Virus record (IMG/VR): IMGVR_UViG_3300042945_001689
Location: 44,125-108,124 of that record
Length of the DNA stretch: 64,000 bases
Source of the DNA: a virus
Reading direction: 5' to 3' (one strand)
The first letter of the stretch is position 1, and each line of letters starts with the position of its first letter. Both the position numbers and the translations under genes were made by a program. The notes beneath the pieces are model-generated. The model saw nothing but the letters and a program-made list of their open reading frames with translations. It did not search any database and was not told the DNA's origin. Below are positions 18,295 to 30,240 of the stretch, in pieces.

Positions 18295-19071
18295 TTGAAA
18301 AAACAAATTCTGGATACCATTGCGTACTCCAAAAAGTTGATAGTCTCGCCAGATATCGATGGACTCATGTCGGCAATGTTGTTATCAAAATATAATGGTT
18401 CGTCAGTGGTAGGTACATACGATAAAAATCTTTTAGTTCTCGCGGATGGCATTGATCCAAAAGACTGTCTATTCGTTGACTGCGATATGAACTCTCCAGA
18501 CTATGTATCAATTGGAAACCATATGCGACTTATGGAAGACAATATTTCAGTCGAATCGTTTAATCCAAATACGCATTACGAAGTCAAGCAATACAATCAA
18601 AAGTTTCCATTTGCAACGTGTTTCCTTCTCGCGTTTGGAATAGAGACTCAAACATCCCTATCTGACAACCTATGCATGGCATATGCAGATTCGACTTACA
18701 AGAATAAAGTCAACTATGCACCTAACATGCAGCATTGGTCAATGTTGATGGATTGTCCAGAAGTTCAATTTGTTATGAACAATGATGTCCACACATCTGT
18801 GGAAAACCATATGGGTTATATGGAAGGTAAGCAAGGTTTTGTTTCAAGACGATTAGGCAAGGAAAAGTATATTGATCAAATGAACCAGGCATTAGATAAT
18901 CAAGGCGCATGGTCATTTGCATTTCCTAATAAATTAACCAGGGGATACAAATACCAAACAGGCCTAATAGACAAAACAACCTGTATACGATATAATAAAG
19001 ATATAATCTCATACGCAGAAGTATATGGAGGAGAATATAGCGTGACTTATAAGGATGAAGTAGAATGGTAG
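18295..19071 (+). CDS. DHH-like phosphoesterase
   Basis: SPDIDGLMSA, FVDCD, GNH motifs. Confidence 0.55.
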   Translation: MKKQILDTIAYSKKLIVSPDIDGLMSAMLLSKYNGSSVVGTYDKNLLVLADGIDPKDCLFVDCDMNSPDYVSIGNHMRLMEDNISVESFNPNTHYEVKQYNQKFPFATCFLLAFGIETQTSLSDNLCMAYADSTYKNKVNYAPNMQHWSMLMDCPEVQFVMNNDVHTSVENHMGYMEGKQGFVSRRLGKEKYIDQMNQALDNQGAWSFAFPNKLTRGYKYQTGLIDKTTCIRYNKDIISYAEVYGGEYSVTYKDEVEW

Positions 19072-19256
19072 GGCCTTGGGATTTATTAAATCCAAATGCG
19101 CCAAGAACACCAGAAGGTCTTGCTGCTGCCCGCCTAGAAATCTGTCAATCGTGTGATTGGTTTAGACCAAAAACTCAAACATGTAAAAAGTGTGGATGTT
19201 TTATGAAACTTAAGACTACCCTTGAACAGGCTAAGTGTCCATTGGGTAAGTGGTAG
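19065..19256 (+). CDS. Small Cys-rich protein
   Basis: RLEICQSC..CKKCGCFM..CPLGKW. Confidence 0.7.
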   Translation: MVGPWDLLNPNAPRTPEGLAAARLEICQSCDWFRPKTQTCKKCGCFMKLKTTLEQAKCPLGKW

Positions 19257-19980
19257 ACTCATTACGATATATCCTAACTAGGTTAGATATTGTTGGATAT
19301 TGAGAGTTATACTTGTTTTCCATAAGAAGTAAGCCATGAACGTTGTTTGCTTCGCATTCCCTCAAAAATTCAATAAACTCATTTTCTGAAAAATTTTCTA
19401 GATCTACATTGTCTGGTCTATCATCTCCTATTACAGGACAAATTGAGATAACATACTTTTTGTCAGTTAGATCAAACTTATTTATTTTATACCAAGAATA
19501 TGGAACAATCATTGGAAAGTCATTATCTGCACAAACATTAAAAACCTCTTTGTTTGTTGTTGAAATGTAAAAGTCATTATCGCTTATTCTTTTAAATTCT
19601 TTTGCATATTCAAGCATATAGTTAGATCTTTCAATATTTGATGAATTGTCGTTTAGATCAGACAATATACCGCCAAAAATTTTTTCTTTCTCGTAGATAA
19701 ATCCACTTATAAAATTAATTGATACTGCCTTGTCATTAATTTCATTTATAGAAGAACATATCATAGATAGATACTGTGGCGAGATTGAGTGAGGCCTAAT
19801 TGCAACTATAAATTTAAAGTTATCTTTTTCCATTATTCTAGATATTTTTGTAAAGTAGTCATTGCTATAGATTGTGTATGGATACATTACACCATCAAAT
19901 TTTTTATACTGCAGGTTTTTCTTTTTTTTTATAAGTCCAGTAATATTTGTAGAATATCTGTCAAACCAGATTATATCCAC
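19231..19980 (-). CDS. Short luciferase-like (SsuD/LLM) monooxygenase-like protein
   Basis: FIVAIRPHSISPQY..INFISG resembles LLM motifs; paralog of 35140..35874. Confidence 0.55.
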   Translation of the reverse strand: MDIIWFDRYSTNITGLIKKKKNLQYKKFDGVMYPYTIYSNDYFTKISRIMEKDNFKFIVAIRPHSISPQYLSMICSSINEINDKAVSINFISGFIYEKEKIFGGILSDLNDNSSNIERSNYMLEYAKEFKRISDNDFYISTTNKEVFNVCADNDFPMIVPYSWYKINKFDLTDKKYVISICPVIGDDRPDNVDLENFSENEFIEFLRECEANNVHGLLLMENKYNSQYPTISNLVRIYRNESTTYPMDT

Positions 19981-20213
19981 TACTCTTCCTTACAACTACA
20001 ATGATTACAAACATCTTCTTTGAATAATTGAGTTGCCCATTTATCTTCTAGCCATAAAGGGTTTGGAGGAGTGTGTGTCTTGTTAATCTCTACCCATGTT
20101 TCTCTACCCATATTGTCTGTTCTAGGAATATGGCTTGATTCGAACTCAGGAGCCTTTGGTTCTTCCTGGAAATCTATGTCCCAGGCATTTTCGAAATTAT
20201 CTAATATACCCAT
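19980..20213 (-). CDS. Hypothetical protein
   Basis: 77 aa; TATAAT 6 nt upstream of ATG. Confidence 0.6.
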   Translation of the reverse strand: MGILDNFENAWDIDFQEEPKAPEFESSHIPRTDNMGRETWVEINKTHTPPNPLWLEDKWATQLFKEDVCNHCSCKEE

Positions 20214-20344
20214 GTATTTATTATACCCGAAAATCTGAAAAATTTTGGTTTTGAGAAAATCTGAATATTTTGTAAAGATGTATGATACATGATTTTAAAA
20301 AAAACACACAAAAAAATTAGTGAGCACACCGCAGAGATATGCCC

Positions 20345-20403
20345 ACTATGCATGGCCTTTTATTTTAAACTATGCACCCACTTTTATTTTACACTATGCA
20401 CCC
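20345..20403. repeat. Three direct repeats with 24-bp period (core ACTATGCA)
   Basis: ACTATGCA at 20345, 20369, 20393 separated by TTTTATTTT tracts. Confidence 0.85.
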
Positions 20404-20429
20404 TTGTTTATTTCTTAGGGGTGCCACCT

Positions 20430-20606
20430 CTATAATGTATTCCCCTGCACGTAGCCGTCAATACATAATAGATCGCATGTAATTTTTACACGCTGGTTAG
20501 GTAGTAGTGTTGATTTAAATACCTCAATAAAATCGTAGACCTCTTGCTTAGTCATGAGGTTAATGTTGCGAGTGTTACCTGACATTGTTGTTAGTGTTAC
20601 TTTCAT
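20430..20606 (-). CDS. Small early protein (paralog of 21762..21938)
   Basis: hand-translated MKVTLTTMSG..KITCDLLCIDGYVQGNTL*; AAAGGA SD. Confidence 0.7.
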   Translation of the reverse strand: MKVTLTTMSGNTRNINLMTKQEVYDFIEVFKSTLLPNQRVKITCDLLCIDGYVQGNTL

Positions 20607-20735
20607 TTAGTTTCCTTTAGTAGTGCATAGACATTGGTTAATTGTAATTGTGTTACCCTTTTGGATAACGCTTGCGAGAGTGTCACACTCATCGCAGATG
20701 TAAAGATGATCGAACATATCCATAATGTTACCCAT
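20607..20735 (-). CDS. Small Cys-containing early protein
   Basis: AGGAG SD; CDEC motif. Confidence 0.55.
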   Translation of the reverse strand: MGNIMDMFDHLYICDECDTLASVIQKGNTITINQCLCTTKGN

Positions 20736-20740
20736 ATTGG

Positions 20741-20935
20741 TTACTCTCCTAAAAAATAATCTAATTTGTAGCGTGAGAGGTGAAACCACTCACCTGATTC
20801 TAGTAACACACTCTTAGCGTGTTGATTAGACTTTTTGATCTTAACGATCTTGCCTGATTTAACTAAGGCAAAAGATAGAGGCATTGTAATAATATCTCCA
20901 ATTTCGATATTGTCGTATAGTGATAATGTAGTCAT
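20741..20935 (-). CDS. Small early protein
   Basis: GAAAGG SD, downstream of minus-strand promoter. Confidence 0.65.
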   Translation of the reverse strand: MTTLSLYDNIEIGDIITMPLSFALVKSGKIVKIKKSNQHAKSVLLESGEWFHLSRYKLDYFLGE

Positions 20936-20990
20936 TTAGTAACTACCTTTCTTTTAATGTGATAAACCTTGTGTTTATCGCTTTCCTTGA

Positions 20991-21065
20991 CCTAGGTTAT
21001 TTGCTCTTATTTGCTACGCTCACTCTATTTCTAGATTTATTTGGTAGGCTCAGAGGCTCACTAGG
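20991..21065 (-). ncRNA. Structured leader RNA: hairpin with three UGAGC/CAAAUAA internal loops and GAAA tetraloop
   Basis: CCUAG UGAGC CUC UGAGC CUAC CAAAUAA AUCUA GAAA UAGAG UGAGC GUAG CAAAUAA GAG CAAAUAA CCUAGG; four stems pair. Confidence 0.75.
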
Positions 21066-21091
21066 ATTTCTTATTTAATTTTATAGTAGTA

Positions 21092-21120
21092 ATACTAGCA
21101 TAGAAATCTCAAAAAGTCAA
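21092..21120 (-). promoter_or_regulatory. SigA-type promoter TTGACT-N17-TAGTAT with extended TG
   Basis: consensus match and spacing; drives the leader RNA and leftward early genes. Confidence 0.75.
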
Positions 21121-21206
21121 GTTTAGACACGGACAAATCGGACATTTTTTGTGTGATCTGTACCACATTTACCCGCGGGCCCCGACACGCCCGACCTCGT
21201 TGTGGG

Positions 21207-21256
21207 TTATCCACATGATGTACATCACATCCAGAATTGAGCGTGAGTTATCCACA
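21207..21256 (+). promoter_or_regulatory. Two DnaA boxes (TTATCCACA at 21207 and 21248)
   Basis: perfect consensus; further boxes at 23806 and 28711, 1-mismatch box at 28722. Confidence 0.7.
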
Positions 21257-21310
21257 TGACCTACATCACATTTCAAAATGTCCGTTTTGGTATGATTACT
21301 GGTCAGTAGA

Positions 21311-21332
21311 TGTCAGACCCCCCTGCTATACT
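21311..21332 (+). promoter_or_regulatory. TGTCAG-N10-TATACT promoter
   Basis: member of 7-copy motif family with fixed spacing. Confidence 0.7.
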
Positions 21333-21387
21333 TCTAGGTATAGAAGGTTGAAAAAGAAGTAAACCCCTTAAAGAAAGGAAGTCCAGA

Positions 21388-21597
21388 ATGACTTCACTAA
21401 ATGTAAATGTAACTACTAAACAATATGAATTGCGTTGGTCTGGATTGCAGACTTCTAGCAATTACACTTCATCTAATTTAGGTGGATTGTTCAATGATGA
21501 AAAGTCTATGAACGACTACTTAGATCAAAAAGTATCTGAGGGTTGGATAATCCTTGAAACTTCCGTTAATGTTTTTGAGCCTTTGGAGGTAAAGTAA
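21388..21597 (+). CDS. Small early protein
   Basis: GAAAGGA SD after promoter. Confidence 0.7.
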   Translation: MTSLNVNVTTKQYELRWSGLQTSSNYTSSNLGGLFNDEKSMNDYLDQKVSEGWIILETSVNVFEPLEVK

Positions 21598-21761
21598 TGA
21601 ACGCTATTTATTCACTAAAATCTATCTGCGGAAAGAATACTTTCTATGTAGATGCATATGATGTAAATTTTAATCCTAATGGTGCAACATGTTGCGATAA
21701 TTGCAAATCAATTTTAATCTGCCGTGAGGCTTGGGACTTTCTCTATAAGGGGGATAAATAA
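21597..21761 (+). CDS. Small Cys-rich early protein
   Basis: hand-translated MNAIYSLKSICG..CCDNC..GDK*; GGAGG SD. Confidence 0.65.
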   Translation: MNAIYSLKSICGKNTFYVDAYDVNFNPNGATCCDNCKSILICREAWDFLYKGDK

Positions 21762-21938
21762 ATGATAAAACTTAAACTAACTACGTTTAATGGTACTACT
21801 AAGGATATTTCTTTCAGTACCTCGTCAGATGTGCGTACATATATTGACGCACTAAAAAATACACTACCTAAATCAGTAGTGTTGCAAGTATCTTGCGATA
21901 CTCTTGGAATATCGGGTCACTTGAAAGGAAACAAATAA
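21762..21938 (+). CDS. Small early protein (paralog of 20430..20606)
   Basis: MIKLKLTTFNG..QVSCDTLGISGHLKGNK*. Confidence 0.7.
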   Translation: MIKLKLTTFNGTTKDISFSTSSDVRTYIDALKNTLPKSVVLQVSCDTLGISGHLKGNK

Positions 21939-22483
21939 TGAACCTTGATGAATATAAACAATTCGTAAAAACAAAACGTCAGATGTCAAAAATTGACGCT
22001 ATGGCAATTCTTGAAAATGCTAAAAAGCAAAATGAACTTATCCACTCTCAAAAAGAAAATGGTGAAAACTAATGAGCCTTGAACTACAAGACACACTGGC
22101 TATATGCCGTCAAATTCGTAACAATGATCGTGATAGTGGAACACACTACTTACTAGGTTATCTATGGGCTAACACTTCAGATAAAGAAAAGAAAAGAATC
22201 TATAAATTGTTCAAGGCAGACCTTGATGAGATTGGAGAAAAATAAAATGGAATTCGTAATTGTGTGCATGCATTGTTGGAAGAATACAAAATATGATGCG
22301 CTATCAGATGCAAGAGGGTTGCCGTGTAATCAATGCGGTAAAATCCTATAGGATGTGTTTAGACAAATAGTCTAAAAAAGCCCGCGGGCCCCTGTCCAAA
22401 ATGTCCGATTTGTGATATGTGATGTAACACACATTGAGAGTTGTCCGATTTGTCTGATAATTACTTGACATAATGTGTGCAAA

Positions 22484-22505
22484 TGTCAGACCCCCCTGCT
22501 ATAAT
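22484..22505 (+). promoter_or_regulatory. TGTCAG-N10-TATAAT promoter
   Basis: near-identical to 21311 copy. Confidence 0.7.
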
Positions 22506-22558
22506 ATAAATATAAAGAAAACAAGCGGTAAAGAAATCCGCTAAGAAAGGTGGTCAAA

Positions 22559-22756
22559 ATGACTACATTAAATAAAACTCAATGTGTGAATGGTAATTCT
22601 CACACCCCTAATCGTAAAGCAATTTCAATAATTGCTCACAATTTCGATTGTTCCGATTACTTTACATTTTGCGAAGTTTGCGAGCAAAACATTTCAGCAT
22701 TCTCATTCTATGATGAGGATCGTGGAGATGTTCTCAGCAAATGGTCAATAGACTAA
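22559..22756 (+). CDS. Small Zn-finger-like early protein
   Basis: CEVC; GAAAGGTGG SD. Confidence 0.65.
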   Translation: MTTLNKTQCVNGNSHTPNRKAISIIAHNFDCSDYFTFCEVCEQNISAFSFYDEDRGDVLSKWSID

Positions 22757-22763
22757 AAGGTCG

Positions 22764-22779
22764 TGTGATTAACCTCACA
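22764..22779. promoter_or_regulatory. CRP/GlxR-type site TGTGA-N6-TCACA
   Basis: perfect consensus. Confidence 0.7.
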
Positions 22780-22817
22780 TTCCAAATGTCCTAAATGTCC
22801 GTTTTTGGATTTGATTA

Positions 22818-22839
22818 TGTCAGTCCAATCTGGTAAGAT
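22818..22839 (+). promoter_or_regulatory. TGTCAG-N10-TAAGAT promoter
   Basis: motif family. Confidence 0.65.
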
Positions 22840-22872
22840 AAATACATAACAAAAAAAGAAAGAGGTGGCACT

Positions 22873-23076
22873 ATGTCAGCCAATGTTTACTCAGTCCAAT
22901 CCCTACTAGTGGGAACCGAATATCAGTCTGCAACCTTAACGGGTAAGATCGTTAGAGCAGAAGCGCACCCTAAAGCCGTATGGTATGATGGTTGCGAAAG
23001 TTATCTCGTAGAAATCCGACCTGAAATCGGATTTAGAAATGCTTATCGCACCATAGCGGTAAAAACTTCTAATTAA
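22873..23076 (+). CDS. Small early protein
   Basis: GAGGTGG SD. Confidence 0.7.
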   Translation: MSANVYSVQSLLVGTEYQSATLTGKIVRAEAHPKAVWYDGCESYLVEIRPEIGFRNAYRTIAVKTSN

Positions 23077-23091
23077 ATAAAATCGAAACAA

Positions 23092-23139
23092 GGGCAGTTT
23101 AGAGAGTGTTCTCGCCCGATGTCGTAAGTAAGAACTCTC
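23092..23139 (-). ncRNA. Divergent antisense copy of the pseudoknot motif
   Basis: GAGAGUUC..GGGCG-A-GAAC(A)CUCUC-UAAAC-UGCCC; same topology, longer loop 1. Confidence 0.4.
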
Positions 23140-23147
23140 ACCAATAT

Positions 23148-23169
23148 TGTCAGTGCCCACTGATATAAT
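23148..23169 (+). promoter_or_regulatory. TGTCAG-N10-TATAAT promoter
   Basis: motif family. Confidence 0.7.
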
Positions 23170-23201
23170 TTAACTCAACTAAAGAATAGGAAATAAAAAC
23201 A

Positions 23202-23408
23202 ATGAAAAAAATAACCCACTCGCTACAATTCGTTACCGAGGTTGATGAAAATCACCCAATAGGAATGCAACTGCTTTCACTTTCACGAGAAATGCAAAAA
23301 GAAATGCTTGAAGGAATGTTAAAAGAACTGGTTGCACCAAAAATTCAACCAATCCTTGACTTTCTTAATGAAGGCAATTCATATGCAATTCTAAAGGTGG
23401 CAGACTAA
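23202..23408 (+). CDS. Small early protein
   Basis: ORF after promoter, AGGA SD. Confidence 0.7.
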   Translation: MKKITHSLQFVTEVDENHPIGMQLLSLSREMQKEMLEGMLKELVAPKIQPILDFLNEGNSYAILKVAD

Positions 23409-23608
23409 TGATGACACGAAAAGACTATGTCGCAACTGCTGAAATTCTAAGCAATTATTTTGCTACATCTATTTTTGATGAGCAGGCAGAAATTTTATTT
23501 GCTGATTTGGTAGATGAATTTTCGCTAATGTTTGAAAGTGATAATCCAAGATTTGACGCAAATAAATTTGCTCTTGCTTGCTATAAAGAAATTGAGGTAA
23601 ATGCGTGA
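23408..23608 (+). CDS. Small early protein
   Basis: MTRKDY..DNPRFD..F..AC; coupled start/stop. Confidence 0.7.
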   Translation: MMTRKDYVATAEILSNYFATSIFDEQAEILFADLVDEFSLMFESDNPRFDANKFALACYKEIEVNA

Positions 23609-23735
23609 ATAGATTTTTAACAACAATCGTTCAACTATTTTTAGCGGGTAGCGTTTTCATTTTATTTAAAATGATGTTACCAATGCTAAAAGAAGATTTT
23701 CAACAAATAAAAAATGATTTAACAAAATAAAAAAA

Positions 23736-23763
23736 ATTCCTAAGCAAGAATAAAAACTGCTTA
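23736..23763 (+). ncRNA. H-type pseudoknot motif, copy 1
   Basis: AUUC-C-UAAGCA-A-GAAU-AAAAAC-UGCUUA; compensatory A-U in P2. Confidence 0.8.
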
Positions 23764-23879
23764 AATTTTGCCCGCGGGCCCCGACACGCCCGACCTCGTT
23801 GTGAGTTATCCACAACTCCTTTACGTGTGGTTAAGATCACACCCCAAAACCTGCAAAACCCCCTTAATGAATTATGAGA

Positions 23880-23901
23880 TGTCAGTCAAATATGCTAGGA
23901 T
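23880..23901 (+). promoter_or_regulatory. TGTCAG-N10-TAGGAT promoter
   Basis: motif family. Confidence 0.65.
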
Positions 23902-23928
23902 TGTATTATTCCAAAGAAAGGAAAACTA

Positions 23929-24123
23929 ATGGGAAACTTGTTTGATAAAATAGGAATTTGCTACACTTGCTATGATGAGGGCGTTATCTTTACTGATATG
24001 GATAGCGATGGATTTATAAATGATTTCTGCGCTGATTGTGAAAAAGGTCAGGTATTTGCTAATGACTATTCAATATGGTATGCTGAAAATGAAATGAACG
24101 AATACACTAAGGAGAACGCATAA
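23929..24123 (+). CDS. Small Zn-finger-like early protein
   Basis: CYTC..CADC; strong SD. Confidence 0.7.
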   Translation: MGNLFDKIGICYTCYDEGVIFTDMDSDGFINDFCADCEKGQVFANDYSIWYAENEMNEYTKENA

Positions 24124-24226
24124 TGACCTACTATGACGACTACTATGAAACTGATACGCCTACTGCCGTAGGTTGCTACTGCAAAATAAATTATCTATGC
24201 TCAGAATGTAAAGGAAGTTACAACTA

Positions 24227-24439
24227 ATGGAATATGAATATCTAATTACCTGCGCCTATGACGGGAACGCTCCGCATTGGGAGCAACGCTATGAAAACGA
24301 ATATGGCGCATGGGAAAACTTTTTCCTATTTACTGATTGGGGAATGGCTGATGAATACTCAACAGTTAATCTTTACACGCCAACTGGCAAATGTTATACA
24401 AAAAACTTTTATCGTAGTGGAATGGTGAGTGTAAAATAA
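24227..24439 (+). CDS. Small early protein
   Basis: 70 aa with SD. Confidence 0.7.
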   Translation: MEYEYLITCAYDGNAPHWEQRYENEYGAWENFFLFTDWGMADEYSTVNLYTPTGKCYTKNFYRSGMVSVK

Positions 24440-24633
24440 TGACACAGGAAAATTTTAAATATAGTTGGGAACGCTATACTATTTGGGATACCCCCGAAGT
24501 TTGGGAAGAACCATGCGGTGATGAAAGGGCTGAATTGAATGGCGTTGTGTCTTGGGAGTTAGAAGATGAAGAGCCATTTATTTCTTTAGAAGAAGATCCA
24601 GAAATGGAAGATTGGTTAATGAGTAATGTTTAA
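24439..24633 (+). CDS. Small acidic early protein
   Basis: very Glu/Asp/Trp-rich; coupled to upstream ORF. Confidence 0.6.
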   Translation: MTQENFKYSWERYTIWDTPEVWEEPCGDERAELNGVVSWELEDEEPFISLEEDPEMEDWLMSNV

Positions 24634-24842
24634 GATGTAAAATATAAAAACCCCCGCGGGCGATGTCCGATTTGTCCAGAATCTCCCAGGATTTGATTTC
24701 TAAGATTATTTATGATATTATTTTTATATGTGGAAAAAAACAAGCGAAGAGTTACGTAGAATACAAGAGTTACGTAGATCTAATGCTGCTACCCCTTTAC
24801 GGGACAAGTCTAAATATTCCCGAAAAAACAAGCATAAGAAAC

Positions 24843-24871
24843 TTGACATTTATCTCCCTGAAAGGTAGAAT
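24843..24871 (+). promoter_or_regulatory. SigA promoter TTGACA-N17-TAGAAT, leaderless for 24878
   Basis: consensus; ATG 6 nt after -10. Confidence 0.8.
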
Positions 24872-24877
24872 ATTAAT

Positions 24878-25606
24878 ATGAACCCAACTCACACCCTGAA
24901 ACGCTCTAATGATAGGAAAGTAACTAATGCTGTCAGTCCTAATGGTAAGACTCCAACAATTGCTAACACCTTCGGACTACCCGCAGGCAAAGAGTACTCC
25001 TGTCCTGGAGAAACCCCTACCTGCAAAAAAGTCTGCTACGCAGGAAAACTTGAAAAGATCTACAAAGGCGTAAAAGCCGTACTATTACATAATTGGGATT
25101 TGCTAAGCAATGCAGATTTTGATACCCAGGTACAATTGATAGATGAAATGATTATTGATTTCAAGTCTGATTGTGTAAAGAAAGACGCTCCTATGCTATT
25201 CCGTATCCACTGGGACGGAGATTTCTTCAATGATCAATACACTCTGGCCTGGAAGACAGTAATTGAAAGACACGAAGATGTTCAATTTTGGGTATACACG
25301 AGAGTAGCAAGCGCTGCTAGGATTCTTAAGGATGTTTCTAATTTAGGATTATATTATTCTACAGACGGCGATAACAAAAATATTGCACAAGGTCTCTCGG
25401 AAGAAGGAATAAAACTAGCATATCTTTCTACTACATTTGCGTTAGGTAAGGAAGATATGCTAAACTTGATAGGTAAGTCAGCCGTCAAGTGTCCTGAGAA
25501 TAATAAAAAGATTCCCCTCATTTCTAAACAGGGGTCAGCGTGTGTTACTTGCGGTCAATGTGTATTTGAGCGTAATAATATCCTATTTTCTAGTACTAAG
25601 AAATGA
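24878..25606 (+). CDS. GP88-family protein (mycobacteriophage gp88-like, Cys-rich)
   Basis: CPG.T..C..VCYA, FRIHWDGDF, YTR, C-terminal CxxCxxC. Confidence 0.75.
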   Translation: MNPTHTLKRSNDRKVTNAVSPNGKTPTIANTFGLPAGKEYSCPGETPTCKKVCYAGKLEKIYKGVKAVLLHNWDLLSNADFDTQVQLIDEMIIDFKSDCVKKDAPMLFRIHWDGDFFNDQYTLAWKTVIERHEDVQFWVYTRVASAARILKDVSNLGLYYSTDGDNKNIAQGLSEEGIKLAYLSTTFALGKEDMLNLIGKSAVKCPENNKKIPLISKQGSACVTCGQCVFERNNILFSSTKK

Positions 25607-25767
25607 GGAACTATGGAAGTCCTAATTGTCCTATTTATCGGTATTGTCGTATTGTTGGCTGGCTTGGGACATAAGTGATTTATCTCACACCAAAACTAGG
25701 CTCTACGATTTGATATTTTCTAGCAACCCTGCTAGAATTGTAATAACAACAAAAGAAAGGAAGCAAA

Positions 25768-25926
25768 ATGGCAAAGTCAGCACTATACAAAGTAGGCGAC
25801 ACCTATACCTCTCAAAAGAGCAAGGTAACAGGAACCATCTTGGAGATTTCTCCAAACTCATCTGGCTCGGTGCGAGTTAAACTAGATGTAGAGGGAAATA
25901 CCCGTTGGACAACTTGGAAGGCATAA
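25768..25926 (+). CDS. Small early protein (52 aa)
   Basis: hand-translated MAKSALYKVGD..RWTTWKA*; GAAAGGA SD. Confidence 0.7.
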   Translation: MAKSALYKVGDTYTSQKSKVTGTILEISPNSSGSVRVKLDVEGNTRWTTWKA

Positions 25927-25952
25927 GCCTTTAGGTTTAGCAAACGCTAACC

Positions 25953-25983
25953 AGACCTGAGCAAGTCTAGGATAAACTGCTCA
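25953..25983 (+). ncRNA. H-type pseudoknot motif, copy 2
   Basis: AGAC-C-UGAGCA-A-GUCU-AGGAUAAAC-UGCUCA. Confidence 0.8.
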
Positions 25984-26013
25984 CCAAACCCCTTACCCGA
26001 AAGGAACCCAAAT

Positions 26014-26436
26014 ATGGCACGACAGAAAGCAATCTCAGTAAAAATTGCAACAAGCAAAGTAATCAAGGCACTAGAAACTCGTCTAGCAGAACTAGAAAAG
26101 AACTATGCCTCACAAGAAGCCAATGAAGCAAAGTATCAGAAGGCTTACAAGAATTGGCAGAAAGAACTACAAGAGTTCGCTATTGCTAATATCAAGAAGG
26201 CAGAAAACTTCCGCACATCATATCGTTCTTGGAATAAGACCTTGAACATTGACTACGACATCATCACAAACGAGGACTCTTTACCAAAAGAGCCTGAGCG
26301 TGATTTTGAGCAACTCCATCAACACAGTTATCGTGAGATGAAAGAGGAAATGGAAAATGCTATCCGTATTCTCAAAATGACAGATGAGGAAGTTGTAAGC
26401 ACATCAACTTACAATGCTATTTCTCGTTATCTTTAA
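26014..26436 (+). CDS. Hypothetical coiled-coil protein
   Basis: 140 aa, strong SD. Confidence 0.8.
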   Translation: MARQKAISVKIATSKVIKALETRLAELEKNYASQEANEAKYQKAYKNWQKELQEFAIANIKKAENFRTSYRSWNKTLNIDYDIITNEDSLPKEPERDFEQLHQHSYREMKEEMENAIRILKMTDEEVVSTSTYNAISRYL

Positions 26437-26483
26437 CAAGATAGGCACACGGATAATTTAATTATCTATACGCCTTAGTTAAA

Positions 26484-26511
26484 TCTCCTGAGTATGAGGC
26501 TAAACTGCTCA
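26484..26511 (+). ncRNA. H-type pseudoknot motif, copy 3
   Basis: UCUC-C-UGAGUA-U-GAGG-CUAAAC-UGCUCA; G-U wobbles fix the + strand. Confidence 0.8.
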
Positions 26512-26568
26512 CCAACTTTCATCTCTGCTAAGCCCCAGGCCATGATGCGTGGGTATGCCTGAGATGAT

Positions 26569-26596
26569 CTTCCTGAGCATGAGGTTAAACTGCTCA
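26569..26596 (+). ncRNA. H-type pseudoknot motif, copy 4
   Basis: CUUC-C-UGAGCA-U-GAGG-UUAAAC-UGCUCA. Confidence 0.8.
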
Positions 26597-26615
26597 TTTT
26601 TGCCCCGCGGGGGAT

Positions 26616-26631
26616 TGTGATAAACATCACA
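26616..26631. promoter_or_regulatory. CRP/GlxR-type site TGTGA-N6-TCACA
   Basis: perfect consensus just after CCCGCGGG. Confidence 0.7.
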
Positions 26632-26674
26632 TTCTTAAAAAATGTCCAGAAACGCCCAATTTAAGATTAGACAA

Positions 26675-26696
26675 TGTCAGCCCTATCCGCTAGAAT
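26675..26696 (+). promoter_or_regulatory. TGTCAG-N10-TAGAAT promoter
   Basis: motif family. Confidence 0.7.
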
Positions 26697-26727
26697 TATA
26701 TTAACAACAACGAAAGGAACAACCCCT

Positions 26728-27021
26728 ATGGCAAATATGAAGAAAATTATGGATGCAACAAATGATGCTATCCATACTAATGAAATTTCAGATGAGGCTT
26801 CAGGTCTTGTAGCAACTATCGCAGAAGGTCTGCCACTTGATGTAATTATCAAAGAGTTATACCAATACTCGCAAGCCTTATCTGCTATGGTACTAACAAA
26901 AGTTTTGCACACCATGTATGATGCCGAAACTATTGAGAACATGATAGATGGCTACCAAGATGAACTTACCGCAGAAATGTTTGATGAGATTGAAAACTAT
27001 CTTCAGAAAGAAGGAAACTAA
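26728..27021 (+). CDS. Hypothetical acidic early protein
   Basis: start moved to ATG 26728 after promoter and SD. Confidence 0.7.
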   Translation: MANMKKIMDATNDAIHTNEISDEASGLVATIAEGLPLDVIIKELYQYSQALSAMVLTKVLHTMYDAETIENMIDGYQDELTAEMFDEIENYLQKEGN

Positions 27022-27022
27022 T

Positions 27023-27424
27023 ATGCCTATTCCAGATAACTCGTGTCTAGTAACTATCAACTCACTAAATGAGGAGATTGCTTTACTAAAATCACAACTA
27101 GGAGATGCTCTTAGTAACTCACAAAGACACTATGAATACTATGAAAAACTGCAAAACTCTATTCGTTATTTCTTTGAGAGCAATCGTAGTGATGCTACTT
27201 GTGAGTTTGACATTGACAATGTAAATGCTTTCCTTGCTGAAAATAGCATTGAACCGCTAAAGCGTGAGTATCGTGTTGAGTTCCGAATTGAAGGAACAAT
27301 TCTTGTGGAAGCAGAAAACGAAGATGAAGCACAAGATATAGTAAATGAACTTGATGTAACGCATTGGACTGCTGAAGTTGAAAATTTTGAAGCAGAAGCA
27401 ACTAATGTAGAAGCAACCTACTAG
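27023..27424 (+). CDS. Hypothetical early protein
   Basis: GAAGGA SD before ATG 27023; VEAENEDEA motif. Confidence 0.7.
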   Translation: MPIPDNSCLVTINSLNEEIALLKSQLGDALSNSQRHYEYYEKLQNSIRYFFESNRSDATCEFDIDNVNAFLAENSIEPLKREYRVEFRIEGTILVEAENEDEAQDIVNELDVTHWTAEVENFEAEATNVEATY

Positions 27425-27442
27425 TTTTTCCGTAGGGGAAAA

Positions 27443-27470
27443 AGTCCTGAGCATGACTAAAAACTGCTCA
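27443..27470 (+). ncRNA. H-type pseudoknot motif, copy 5
   Basis: AGUC-C-UGAGCA-U-GACU-AAAAAC-UGCUCA. Confidence 0.8.
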
Positions 27471-27483
27471 CCACCCGCGGGGG

Positions 27484-27516
27484 TGTGACATTGATCACAG
27501 TGTGTTCTTTATCACA
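27484..27516. promoter_or_regulatory. Tandem CRP/GlxR-type sites
   Basis: TGTGA-CATTGA-TCACA then TGTGT-TCTTTA-TCACA. Confidence 0.7.
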
Positions 27517-27592
27517 TAACGATATTTTAGGATGATTTGACTTTGACTTTGATTTACGATAAAATTAGAATATCAACTGAAAGGATAAAAAT

Positions 27593-28573
27593 ATGGCTCA
27601 TGAAATCGAAATAATCAACGGTGAGGCTTCTTTTGCTTCATTGCGTGAACCTGCGTGGCATGGTTTAGGTACCGTGTTTACAGAAGAGAAAACAACTAGC
27701 GAAATGCTAGAGTTAGCAAATCTGCAAGACTGGAATGTAAGATTAGAAGAGGTCGAGGCTCCTGCTACTCTAACATCAGACAAAAATTATTTCTATGTAG
27801 TACGAAATAATCCCGTAATCGAAAATCAAAACGATATTTTAGGTATTGTTGGAGAACGTTACAATGTATTGCAAAATGAACAACTATTTGATTTTGCAGA
27901 TGCAATGCTAGATGGTGGACGATGGGAAACCGCTGGCTCACTACGAGGTGGACGTGTAGTATTTGGTAGCCTTGCACTAGATCGTGAAACCGTACTAGAC
28001 CCTAATGGCGTTGCAGATAAAATCAACACCTATCTGATAGTCAATACATCACACGATGGTTCTATCTCAATTCAAGCAAGCGTTACCCCCGTACGTGTAG
28101 TGTGCGCTAACACATTGAACTTTGCTTTGCGTAGTGTAAAGCAATCCTTCAAGATTCGCCACACACAAACTGCTAATGGTAAAGTACAATCCGCTAAGAC
28201 TGCTCTAGGTATTGCTAACGCATACATGGACGACTTTAGCGTTATGGCAAACAAGATGATTCAGACTGAATTATCCGCTAAGCAATTCAACGATATTCTT
28301 CTCACCGCTTACCCTAAGCCTGATAAGGATTCTAAGCAAGCCCTAACCAAGTGGACAAATAAAATTGACACTCTCAATGATATTTACACTGGCGAATTCA
28401 ATCACATGATTTCGGGTAATGCGTGGGGCGCTCTTAATGCAATGACTGAACGCATTGACTGGTTCAGAGGTCAAGGTGAAACTAAGTTAGCAGCAGCAAG
28501 TGGTTTTGATGTTGCGACTAATGCAGAAAAAAATCGTTTAATGAAAATCGTAAATGATTTTGTAGCAGCGTAA
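27593..28573 (+). CDS. DUF932 / TIGR03299-type phage-plasmid protein
   Basis: PAWHGLG, ETAGSLRGGR, NTSHDG, RVVCANTL, RHT motifs. Confidence 0.85.
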   Translation: MAHEIEIINGEASFASLREPAWHGLGTVFTEEKTTSEMLELANLQDWNVRLEEVEAPATLTSDKNYFYVVRNNPVIENQNDILGIVGERYNVLQNEQLFDFADAMLDGGRWETAGSLRGGRVVFGSLALDRETVLDPNGVADKINTYLIVNTSHDGSISIQASVTPVRVVCANTLNFALRSVKQSFKIRHTQTANGKVQSAKTALGIANAYMDDFSVMANKMIQTELSAKQFNDILLTAYPKPDKDSKQALTKWTNKIDTLNDIYTGEFNHMISGNAWGALNAMTERIDWFRGQGETKLAAASGFDVATNAEKNRLMKIVNDFVAA

Positions 28574-28577
28574 ATAA

Positions 28578-28606
28578 ATATCCTGAGCATGATATAAAAC
28601 TGCTCA
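28578..28606 (+). ncRNA. H-type pseudoknot motif, copy 6, 3 nt before tRNA-Asp
   Basis: AUAUC-C-UGAGCA-U-GAUAU-AAAAC-UGCUCA. Confidence 0.8.
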
Positions 28607-28609
28607 TCT

Positions 28610-28686
28610 GATTCCATAGATCAATTGGTTAGATCGCCACCCTGTCACGGTGGAGGTTGCGGGTTCAAGTCCCGTTGGAATCGCCA
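28610..28686 (+). tRNA. tRNA-Asp(GTC)
   Basis: cloverleaf; anticodon stem CCACC/GGTGG, TTCAA T-loop, encoded CCA. Confidence 0.95.
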
Positions 28687-28825
28687 AAGGTTGGTGCAAC
28701 ACCCGCGGGGTTATCCACAGGTTATTCACATGATGAACGGTAAATCAAATTTTAAATCTAAAACATACTTTTTCCCTTTATTAAGAAGAGTTGACTTTTT
28801 CCTGGAATCAGGGTAAAATATTAAT

Positions 28826-29044
28826 ATGACCCAAAAAGTTGCAATTTACGAAATGAATTACTCTTGCTCTCCTGGCGGTATTGACTGCTGGGAAGCAACC
28901 ATTCAAGGTTATGGTACTAGTACTACTGCCTCTGACTTTAAAAATGCTGGAGAGGCTCTTAATTGGGTACTTGACAGATACCCTGACGAAATGTTAGAAT
29001 TGGTAGTAACTTCAATTCCTGCCTACGAAAAGGAATATGTATGA
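28826..29044 (+). CDS. Small early protein (leaderless)
   Basis: TTGACT-N17-TAAAAT at 28791-28819, ATG 6 nt later. Confidence 0.7.
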   Translation: MTQKVAIYEMNYSCSPGGIDCWEATIQGYGTSTTASDFKNAGEALNWVLDRYPDEMLELVVTSIPAYEKEYV

Positions 29045-29204
29045 CCCAAACAACCTACAAACCTTATACTATAAATGAACTAGTCATGGCTATCTATGAA
29101 GATAACCTATCACATTTTGAATTTATGGAAAACATGAATGGGGGAGACTGTGATTGTTCTCTCCATAATACTATGAATACTATTGTTGAATACTGGGGAG
29201 AATA

Positions 29205-29480
29205 ATGGGACGTAATCTAGCAGAAGAGTTAGCAAGCAATTCTTTATTGGATGAGATTAAATTAGATAATGCTATAGCGATACACTTACGGGGTAATCAC
29301 TATCCCCCGATTCCTTTGACTATGGTCCAGCCATGTATCGAAGCAATTGACGCATATTGGGATGAGGATTTAGACCATATGATTGATCTGCCAGAGGGCG
29401 TCTTCTATCGTGGTAGTGACAAGGCTCCTGCTTGGGCCATTATTGAATCACATCATCTTGGCGCTTGGTGTGCAGATTGA
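29205..29480 (+). CDS. Hypothetical protein
   Basis: HLRGNHYPP motif; GGAG SD. Confidence 0.75.
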   Translation: MGRNLAEELASNSLLDEIKLDNAIAIHLRGNHYPPIPLTMVQPCIEAIDAYWDEDLDHMIDLPEGVFYRGSDKAPAWAIIESHHLGAWCAD

Positions 29481-29657
29481 GGTGTACCTCATGTGGAAGT
29501 AAGATAACCTTTGAAAGCCAGGATGAAAGAGGATTCTGGTCCTGCCAGGATTGTGGGCAACCTACAGAAGAAGAGGGTTGACCTTATTAAGAAATGCTTG
29601 ACATTTTCCCCAAAACCTGCTAAAATTTAATTACGAACCAAGTAGAAAGAACCCGAA

Positions 29658-29885
29658 ATGAAAACATCAAGACTAGACCCATACTTACAAAAACAAGTTG
29701 AACTAGGCTCATCTGGCATAGACATTATGCATGGAGCATTAAAGACTATTATGCATGAGTTTGAAAACAAAACCTTTGAGGACAAATCATATGAAGAAGG
29801 ATATATGGATTGTCTTGTTGACCTATACAGTTTGACCTACGATATCTCATTTGCTATCATGGATAATGAGAGAAAGGATACGTAA
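29658..29885 (+). CDS. Hypothetical protein
   Basis: follows TTGACA-N17-TAAAAT at 29598. Confidence 0.7.
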   Translation: MKTSRLDPYLQKQVELGSSGIDIMHGALKTIMHEFENKTFEDKSYEEGYMDCLVDLYSLTYDISFAIMDNERKDT

Positions 29886-30045
29886 TGGCAACATATCGTT
29901 TTATGACTGGTACTTGGTATGAGATTACCCTGCCAGATAACAAGGTAGATTTAGAGGGTTATTTCCCTGAAGAGTTACATGATGCATACTTTGATAACTG
30001 TCTACCCGAAGATGTTCAAGTATACGAAGTTGAAGCGGACCATAT

Positions 30046-30240
30046 ATGGGACAATTGATTGAGTATATTAAGATACATCTAATTAGTTTAAGACAAGATT
30101 GGGAAGATGCTATTAATAACATAGACCTAATTGATTCTGAGTACCATCCTTCTGATGATTATTTTGAAGGAGCAATTGAGGCAACAGAGCACCTGTTGTC
30201 AGTGGCAGAAGGTATACTTAATGGTGGAGAGGATAGATAA
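30046..30240 (+). CDS. Hypothetical acidic protein
   Basis: coupled to 30240 ORF. Confidence 0.6.
   Translation: MGQLIEYIKIHLISLRQDWEDAINNIDLIDSEYHPSDDYFEGAIEATEHLLSVAEGILNGGEDR
30197..30218 (+). promoter_or_regulatory. TGTCAG-N10-TATACT promoter (inside upstream CDS)
   Basis: motif family; 21 nt before ATG 30240. Confidence 0.6.

Follow-up and report, generated by a model that had tools for sequence, protein, structure and literature searches.

The leftward early operon of this phage raises the question of whether a nested hairpin lying between its promoter and its first gene is a real structured RNA and, if so, what such an RNA would do on an early transcript. The window, by which we mean the whole stretch of 64,000 nt that was analysed, belongs to a 108-kb siphovirus encoding a 2533-aa tape measure protein, a portal, a protease and a ribonucleotide reductase. 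Its minus strand from 21065 to 20991 can be drawn as a 75-nt nested hairpin, called the rod below, in which four stems are separated by three 5x7 internal loops. The parts of the rod and of the surrounding operon are as follows.

20991..21065, minus: three-module rod, P1-loop 1-P1b-loop 2-P2-loop 3-apical stem (from sequence, MFE and covariance model)
21065-21061 with 20995-20991, minus: stem P1, 5 bp, CCUAG/CUAGG (sequence reading)
21055-21053 with 21006-21004, minus: stem P1b, 3 bp, CUC/GAG (sequence reading)
21047-21044 with 21017-21014, minus: stem P2, 4 bp, CUAC/GUAG (sequence reading)
21035-21032 with 21027-21024, minus: apical stem, 4 bp, closed by GAAA (sequence reading)
21060-21056 opposite 21003-20997, minus: loop 1, UGAGC opposite CAAAUAA (invariant in relatives)
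21052-21048 opposite 21013-21007, minus: loop 2, UGAGC opposite CAAAUAA (invariant in relatives)
21022-21018 opposite 21043-21037, minus: loop 3, inverted, UGAGC opposite CAAAUAA (invariant in relatives)
21092..21120, minus: sigma-70-type promoter TTGACT-17-TAGTAT with TG before the -10 (same layout upstream of relatives' rods)
21071..21080, minus: A-rich leader start AAUUAAAUAA, single-stranded, with a fourth AAAUAA (conserved T(A/G)AATA)
20959..20981, minus: hairpin 2 of the leader, between rod and Shine-Dalgarno (SD) sequence (stem varies and compensates among relatives)
20928..20946, minus: hairpin 3, a stem right after the SD (pairs the UG of the ATG at 20935-20933 and the next two codons)
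20430..20935, minus: three small ORFs of 64, about 50-60 and 58 aa, served by the predicted rod leader
about 20308-20348, minus: strong intrinsic terminator, 13-bp stem and U7, ending the short leftward operon

The stems and the three UGAGC/CAAAUAA loops are present in the minus-strand sequence as an earlier, sequence-only reading of this DNA had described them. Loops 1 and 2 carry UGAGC on their 5' side and CAAAUAA on their 3' side, loop 3 has the two strands swapped, and a single extra C (20996) adjoins P1. The fold prediction suggested by that reading, run as an unconstrained MFE search, returned all four stems, and the position it gave for the rod, about 20 nt after a minus-strand promoter, agrees with a P1 that begins 27 nt past the -10, at about +20 from the likely start. 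The repeat arrangement is not due to chance. Counting both strands of the entire 108-kb genome, there are 91 copies of TGAGC and 52 of CAAATAA; the half-pattern TGAGC-N(2-6)-CAAATAA-N(2-6)-CAAATAA occurs once in the window and in none of 100 shuffles. At the promoter itself a second -10-like hexamer, TACTAT, lies 3 nt downstream of the -10 and forms a small palindrome with it, TAGTA-NNN-TACTA at 21083-21097 (minus), in which 3 nt separate the -10 hexamer from its complement. In loci L001-L119 these two halves co-vary (ATACT/AGTAT, GACT/AGTC, TATAGT/ACTATA).

The rod has many relatives. Pattern scans, which took up the proposed descriptor search for UGAGC/CAAAUAA loops, recovered at least 276 rods on at least 194 viral, metagenome and MAG contigs, with at least 118 distinct cores. 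When viral contigs were scanned with the 3' half of the pattern, at least 119 loci were found; 69 of them hold the complete three-loop element, though the 5' half was not in the query, about nine hold a one-module version, and the remainder are chance matches in coding DNA. A covariance model built from the three-module set and run on relatives gave many weaker hits, which proved to be two-module rods and more one-module rods. With the family covariance model the window rod scores 102.7 bits, and it is the sole copy in its genome (99% complete); in relatives 17 loci carry 2 rods and 16 loci carry 3. By a strict two-module pattern, 114 of the 120 metagenome matches listed were true rods, as were 5 of the 12 matches listed from MAG contigs, the rest of these being unrelated tandem repeats. 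The five MAG rods sit on AT-rich contigs, four of them short, in MAGs of inconsistent taxonomy, and are most likely phage DNA; no cellular RNA carrying the module was found among the matches listed from the scan of MAG and genome contigs. The carriers are uncultivated aquatic phage contigs. An Rfam 15 cmscan of window positions 19000-23000 at E<=10 returned nothing overlapping 20991-21065, a literature search on the loop strings turned up no pertinent report, neither a 701-nt region (blastn) nor the first ORF (tblastn) matched any GenBank phage, and a search for related loci using a 249-aa ORF found nothing. Streptomyces phage BillNye, the nearest cultured relative by polymerase, is without the rod. 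Judged from sequence, the rods form a large and widespread family of structured leader RNA that is undescribed and unusual in its modular design.

All members of the family are built from one 5x7 internal loop, in which (U)GAGC faces C(A/G)AAUAA. Its GAGC and C-AAUAA letters are invariant in 67 of 67 distinct two-module model hits, the variable places being loop position 2 (A/G) and the leading U, and the 11 invariant letters are kept across phage lineages that share neither stems nor flanks, which bears out the loop conservation that was to be looked for in related phages. The commonest form (193 of 276 among the matches listed) is a two-module symmetric unit. Here two UGAGC-stem-CAAAUAA strands, with stems of 4-5 nt such as CUAG, are paired via a central stem so that each UGAGC lies opposite the other strand's CAAAUAA and the duplex is two-fold symmetric. 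One-module rods are half of this unit, three-module rods are the unit plus an extra loop towards P1, and a four-module rod, the sole one among the matches listed (L189, 1027-1117, plus), stacks two symmetric units with a 6-bp stem between them. The rods are about 45-85 nt long and the two-module unit about 45-65 nt. A purine-purine mismatch, or U opposite C/U, is often found between loop and outer stem, and the apical loops are often GNRA, with many others that are not. A CRP/GlxR-like palindrome, a perfect TGTGA-N6-TCACA, makes up the apical hairpin of many two-module rods, some 60 nt ahead of the promoter that comes next; L051 2780-2797 and L130 6215-6232 are examples.

Is this design folded as RNA? 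Free energy gives the rod no support, and its support comes instead from comparison between related rods. In the window the rod has an MFE of -10.6 kcal/mol with a z of -0.29, and 81 of 200 shuffles fold as well. With the loops forced open many rods barely fold, their stems being marginally stable, and RNAalifold predicted no structure on 45 two-module rods; taken together, these two results imply that the rod must owe its cohesion to non-canonical pairing or to a partner. Following the null RNAalifold result, pairing was counted on the named structure of the two-module rods. In the three-module rods fitted to the model, 95.4% of cells were paired compared to 73.8% in shuffles, and the covariation score was 0.531 compared to 0.166, with none of 500 shuffles as high; slid partners were paired in 21-50%. 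The two-module model (67 distinct hits) gave 91.5% compared to 65.6% in shuffles, a covariation score of 0.529 compared to 0.135, again with 0/500 shuffles as high, and 27-47% for slid partners. Both alignments were fitted to the structure, a bias in its favour, and the compensating changes are plain in the raw sequences too. There P1b takes the forms CUC/GAG, CUG/CAG, CUA/UAG and CUU/AAG, its variable pair being C-G, U-A or G-C in the covariance-model alignment, to which a direct reading of CUU/AAG and CUA/UAG adds A-U. P2 is found as CUAC/GUAG, CUAG/CUAG, CUAAG/CUUAG, CUAU/AUAG and others, and more than 60 different apical hairpins occur among the relatives. Among 1185 pairs 25 are G-U and none is an A-C mismatch; since G-U is tolerated and A-C absent, the structure is selected on the sense strand, that transcribed by the upstream promoter. 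On these comparisons the fold of the rod is under selection, and we consider it very probable indeed that the rod is a real structured RNA. The claim of a modular, multivalent leader element with conserved loops and differing stems is likewise backed, by homologues of 1-4 modules and by this strong covariation.

The place of the rod is as regular as its loops. Nearly all rods lie in a predicted 5' leader after a promoter-like site. T(A/G)AATA is present 8-45 nt upstream of 47 of 47 three-module and 40 of 46 two-module distinct rods (87 of the 93 distinct rods of the first set) on a background of 5%, a -35-like TTGAY or TGTCAG lies 50-95 nt upstream of 82 of these 93, and a full promoter match was found in 186 of 227 contexts, with the -10 ending 14-53 nt before the first loop. 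These promoters are close to consensus, strong and in many cases tandem, and about 12-25 unpaired nt precede the rod. Downstream, 46 of 47 three-module rods are followed by a covarying second hairpin, an A-rich stretch and then an SD within 110 nt, and none of the 47 distinct ones has a promoter-like site within 60 nt after it. Two-module rods run directly into another promoter-like site in 32 of 46 cases, typically standing between a sigA-type and a PafBC-type promoter; some rods come after PafBC-type promoters rather than before them. In more distant lineages two-module rods have an SD within 4-40 nt, and the distance from rod to SD wherever no promoter follows is 4-60 nt. One rod may be found before different first genes and one first gene after different rods; the leader is generic and does not depend on the gene that follows. 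Relatives have rods on both sides of a divergent promoter region, and in some lineages (L150) each small cassette has its own promoter and rod.

In PeSL elements, a terminator-like stem-loop stands ahead of an early promoter, and such units flank shuffled genes. The PeSL of T4-type phages has been described as a composite promoter-terminator motif (PMC2839356, PMC4122927) and it appears to resemble our leaders in that conserved units of promoter and stem-loop flank variable small early genes with mosaic gene content. Unlike such a terminator-like stem-loop, the rod follows the promoter, sits inside the leader and has invariant internal loops and covarying stems. Two-module rods do lie just upstream of a second promoter, but the rods have no U tract, and what comes after a three-module rod is an SD. 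This mosaicism of leaders relative to the following genes, as in PeSL cassettes (PMC2839356, PMC4122927), is one of the observations that would fit a DNA-level element, in which a hairpin in the displaced non-template strand, phased protein sites or PeSL-type recombination joints would matter and the RNA would have no role; others are the two DnaA-box-like sites and CRP-like palindromes that adjoin the window rod and the TGTGA-N6-TCACA apical stems of many two-module rods. However, the direct repeats in the rods are spaced 24-36 nt apart, showing no helical phasing and so speaking against phased sites on duplex DNA, the compensating changes break direct-repeat identity while keeping the pairing, G-U pairs are tolerated on the sense strand only, and nearly all rods have a promoter-like site before them and an SD or promoter after them. 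We regard a purely DNA-level role as very unlikely.

In the window the rod is followed by hairpin 2, an A-rich stretch and the SD GAAAGG (20951-20946, minus). Hairpin 2 also scores as a weak terminator on the plus strand. Hairpin 3 recurs with compensating changes in 22 of 30 distinct relatives (mean z -2.7), the bases before the AUG co-varying with the first codons as in GUGGUCA/UGACUAC and GUAUUCA/UGAAUAC, and a similar start-codon hairpin is present at about 22530-22560 (plus). The three ORFs next to the rod matched no Pfam or PHROG family, and early ORFs further along matched only DUF families or families of unknown function. Beyond the operon terminator, a TATAAT lies 6 nt before the ATG of a 77-aa ORF that is without an SD (20213-20232, minus), which looks like a gene with its own promoter and a leaderless mRNA start; leaderless starts are common in actinobacteria. 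With an operon of three ORFs, a strong terminator and a next gene that apparently has its own promoter, antitermination would not be needed in the window. The seven or more rightward early promoters of the phage have no rod by the covariance model run on the genome, so early expression in general does not depend on the rod. Two copies of TGTGGATAA, the complement of a DnaA box, lie at 21248-21256 and 21207-21215 (minus), in the interval that separates the divergent early promoters; L051 has the same pair, which may mark an origin region.

Pairing between the rod and the end of the operon was also considered. In many relatives, as at the window terminator (20308-20348), the leftward early operon closes with a conserved box, GUGCUCACUA, and U5-7 after it; in some relatives the box stands about 9 nt beyond a strong hairpin and not inside it. 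The box is complementary to the first 8 nt of the rod, so that these bases, the last three of P1 with loop 1, could pair with the 3' strand of the terminator, and in L075 the match extends to 10 nt with a changed sequence. We set this long-range pairing aside, as most relatives have strong local hairpins there and the string is shared with local pseudoknot stems.

What, then, might the rod do? We propose that it serves, on early transcripts, as a multivalent docking site for a trans-acting factor that is conserved and probably dimeric, a reading for which belief and doubt are, in our judgement, about evenly balanced. The argument comes from the 11 invariant loop letters, the two-fold symmetry, the 1-4 copies of the module, the several rods per genome in relatives and the fixed place in the leader. 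The rod would be a cis-encoded structured RNA in the predicted 5' leader of an immediate-early transcript, its loops a sequence-specific docking site, and its symmetric loop pair the part read by a dimeric partner. Such a partner appears to be slow-evolving, so a host component (RNA polymerase elongation complex, ribonuclease or ribosome) would be likelier than a fast-evolving phage protein, and its binding would mark transcripts from rod promoters for a special fate. As the consequence we would favour protection or processivity of the early transcript, that is a nut/put-like change of the polymerase or a roadblock against 5' decay, with shut-off by a repressor as second choice; any one named consequence is, taken singly, unlikely. 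Against the whole reading stand the short, terminated operon of the window and the rightward early promoters that have no rod. No protein family was found to accompany the rods across all lineages by gene neighbourhood, the early ORFs having no informative family match, and invariant loops could also reflect a self-contained tertiary fold. The three functions named in the sequence-only reading, a sponge for a protein, a put-like antiterminator and a ligand sensor, are fair hypotheses, a docking platform being the best supported, and a docking site is our reading of the rod in preference to a precise fold of the ribozyme or aptamer kind.

Among the nearest precedents are the cis-acting leader RNAs of early operons in HK022 and lambda. 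The put RNA of HK022 acts in cis and needs no factor, antiterminating via the zinc-binding domain of the RNA polymerase beta-prime subunit; lambda-type nut sites carry on the transcript a boxA (YGCUCUUA-like) next to a boxB hairpin. Like these, the rod is short, structured, independent of the gene, placed just downstream of early promoters and equipped with conserved unpaired bases, and the rods of relatives occur in both divergent early operons. It is unlike them in having no likeness of sequence or architecture, being one loop repeated 1-4 times, nested and with two-fold symmetry. A lambda-type nut was rejected: the boxA-like UGCUCUUA is on the antisense strand only, at P1b/loop 1, and is lost in relatives whose P1b is CUG/CAG or CUA/UAG. 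A put-like RNA, in which the nascent rod, unaided by any protein factor, would itself bind the host RNA polymerase that is transcribing it and make the enzyme resist pausing and termination, we consider unlikely. Its promoter-proximal position in early operons fits HK022 put, as do the rods on both sides of a divergent promoter region in relatives and a length of about 45-85 nt with conserved unpaired bases; an invariant partner such as RNA polymerase would explain invariant loops, and no sigma factor gene (Sigma70_r2) was found in the genome. Yet 1-4 modules would be odd for a precise polymerase ligand, the window operon stops at a strong terminator after three ORFs, and read-through is not obviously needed where, as in L150, each cassette has its promoter and rod.

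The symmetry of the rod may also bring ribonucleases to mind. The leaders of T7, SP82 and lambda N contain irregular RNase III hairpins with internal loops, and the enzyme is a symmetric dimer; a substrate of the T7 R1.1 type has about two turns of duplex around an internal loop. The rod is likewise an irregular hairpin with internal loops in a phage early leader, but it has stems of 3-5 bp and large loops whose sequence is strictly conserved. With stems of just 3-5 bp we rejected a T7 R1.1-type substrate. In a broader version, a host ribonuclease (an RNase III-type dimer, or RNase E/J) would cut or bind the rod, trim the leader and stabilise the message, and this too we think improbable. It has in its favour the two-fold symmetry, the location in 5' leaders, with 4-60 nt to the SD wherever a promoter does not come next, the own copy of the rod on each transcript and the phage precedents just given, and against it the 3-5 bp stems between 12-nt loops, compared to the roughly 20 bp of duplex for RNase III, a strictness of loop conservation that is atypical of RNase III sites, and the about 12-25 unpaired nt ahead of the rod, which mean that the 5' end cannot be hidden.

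Repeated asymmetric loops in a leader hairpin are known from the RAT antiterminator, in which two similar asymmetric internal loops are read by a symmetric LicT/SacY CAT dimer and the overlap of RAT with a terminator is how it works. The rod shares with RAT the leader hairpin with repeated similar asymmetric internal loops. Unlike RAT, rods overlap no terminator, their loop sequences are unrelated and no PRD-type protein is evident.

The loop itself was compared with known modules. A kink-turn has a three-nt bulge followed by tandem sheared G-A/A-G pairs, with GA on both strands; the long strand of the rod loop, CAAAUAA, is without G, which excludes this motif, and the bulge would be on the wrong strand. 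In the UAA/GAN signature ccUAAg/uGAagg, a trans U:A pair stacks on a Watson-Crick pair formed by the base 5' of the U (PMC2615604). The rod loop resembles it in having UAA opposite GAG in register next to a helix, but differs in that the base 5' of the U is an A opposite C and four further bases are conserved, and the motif (PMC2615604) was rejected. A riboswitch was also rejected, a promoter-like site following 32 of 46 two-module rods and the distance to the SD being variable, and no alternative pairing of the rod with the SD was seen. These data bear as well on a ligand sensor or self-contained tertiary module, in which symmetric loops would bind a small molecule or ion or dock on each other. 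The invariant loop letters, a pseudo-symmetry that recalls two-site aptamers and the frequency of GNRA apical loops are consistent with it, but it would have to act with a varying number of modules, many apical loops that are not GNRA and an SD at anything from 4 to about 60 nt. As two-module rods have no expression platform and the next promoter comes directly after them, the ligand sensor is the least likely of the options named in the earlier reading, and we think it highly improbable.

The other option there, a decoy or sponge, would have abundant early leaders with 1-4 sites each titrating a regulator, a defence factor or some other RNA-binding protein of the host. Multivalent sites, relatives with 2 or 3 rods per locus and the strong, near-consensus, often tandem promoters would suit such a function; a single rod in this phage would not, nor would rods that always lie within mRNA leaders and never form free-standing RNAs with terminators. 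There is also no candidate target, and to our knowledge actinobacteria lack Hfq and CsrA. We consider a sponge quite unlikely.

Actinobacterial hosts are what the sequence features of these phages point to, namely PafBC-type promoters, polymerase relatives and GAAAGG ribosome sites. The DnaE-type polymerase of the phage shares 54% identity with its counterparts in Streptomyces phages (Stanwilliamsviridae), BillNye among them. The phage itself is rich in PafBC-type promoters. The PafBC-type word TGTC(A/G)G-N10-TAnnnT occurs 898 times in 209 rod-bearing loci compared to 21 in shuffles, and 4 times in 42 unrelated loci; this word, PafBC/RecA-NDp-like, is present in 180 of the 209 loci, and in the window at 21311-30218. 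In one further mechanism, to which we give very little credence, the rod would be a phage-made nucleic-acid effector of the host WYL-type activator PafBC. The loops, exposed on RNA or on displaced non-template DNA while a strong sigA promoter fires, would bind the paired WYL domains and so turn on the many PafBC-type phage promoters, the outcome being a cascade from immediate-early to early transcription. The abundance of these words, the typical location of two-module rods between sigA-type and PafBC-type promoters and a symmetry that fits a dimer are in line with this. However, PafBC was activated in vitro by ssDNA and not by the one 12-nt ssRNA tested (PMC11804915), some rods come after PafBC-type promoters, and the co-occurrence may reflect no more than a shared host clade.

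Returning to the docking site, we searched for candidates for its partner. A basic 46-aa peptide at 24728-24868 (plus), directly upstream of a GP88-family gene (24878-25606, plus), scores 26.5 bits against a DUF7230 cut-off of 27, and a DUF7230-like peptide is found in 50 of 207 rod-bearing loci. As an arginine-rich RNA-binding partner it was rejected, being present as a weak match in BillNye, which has no rod, and missing from the genome to which L133 belongs. In the phage genome the sole pocket-type target (UUAUUUG next to GCUCA) was the antisense strand of the rod itself. UGAGCC is complementary over 6 nt to what we take to be the 5' end of 16S rRNA, a match within chance. The suggestion that the rod might share a partner with pseudoknots through a common UGAGC gained no support, since UGAGC(A) there is one strand of a local stem with UGCUCA.

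The early-promoter leader RNAs known to us (nut, put and RNase III sites) were all found in a handful of model phages that infect E. coli or Bacillus, and they opened whole fields of research on transcription and RNA decay. The rod is abundant in aquatic phages whose polymerase and promoters point to actinobacterial hosts, and its design is very simple: one 12-nt internal loop, made into a symmetric pair and stacked 1-4 times. Probing, pull-downs and structure determination should all be practicable with a unit as short as the two-module one. Loops this invariant imply a conserved partner, whose identity would reveal either a new form of phage early-transcript control in actinobacteria or a new host RNA-binding factor.
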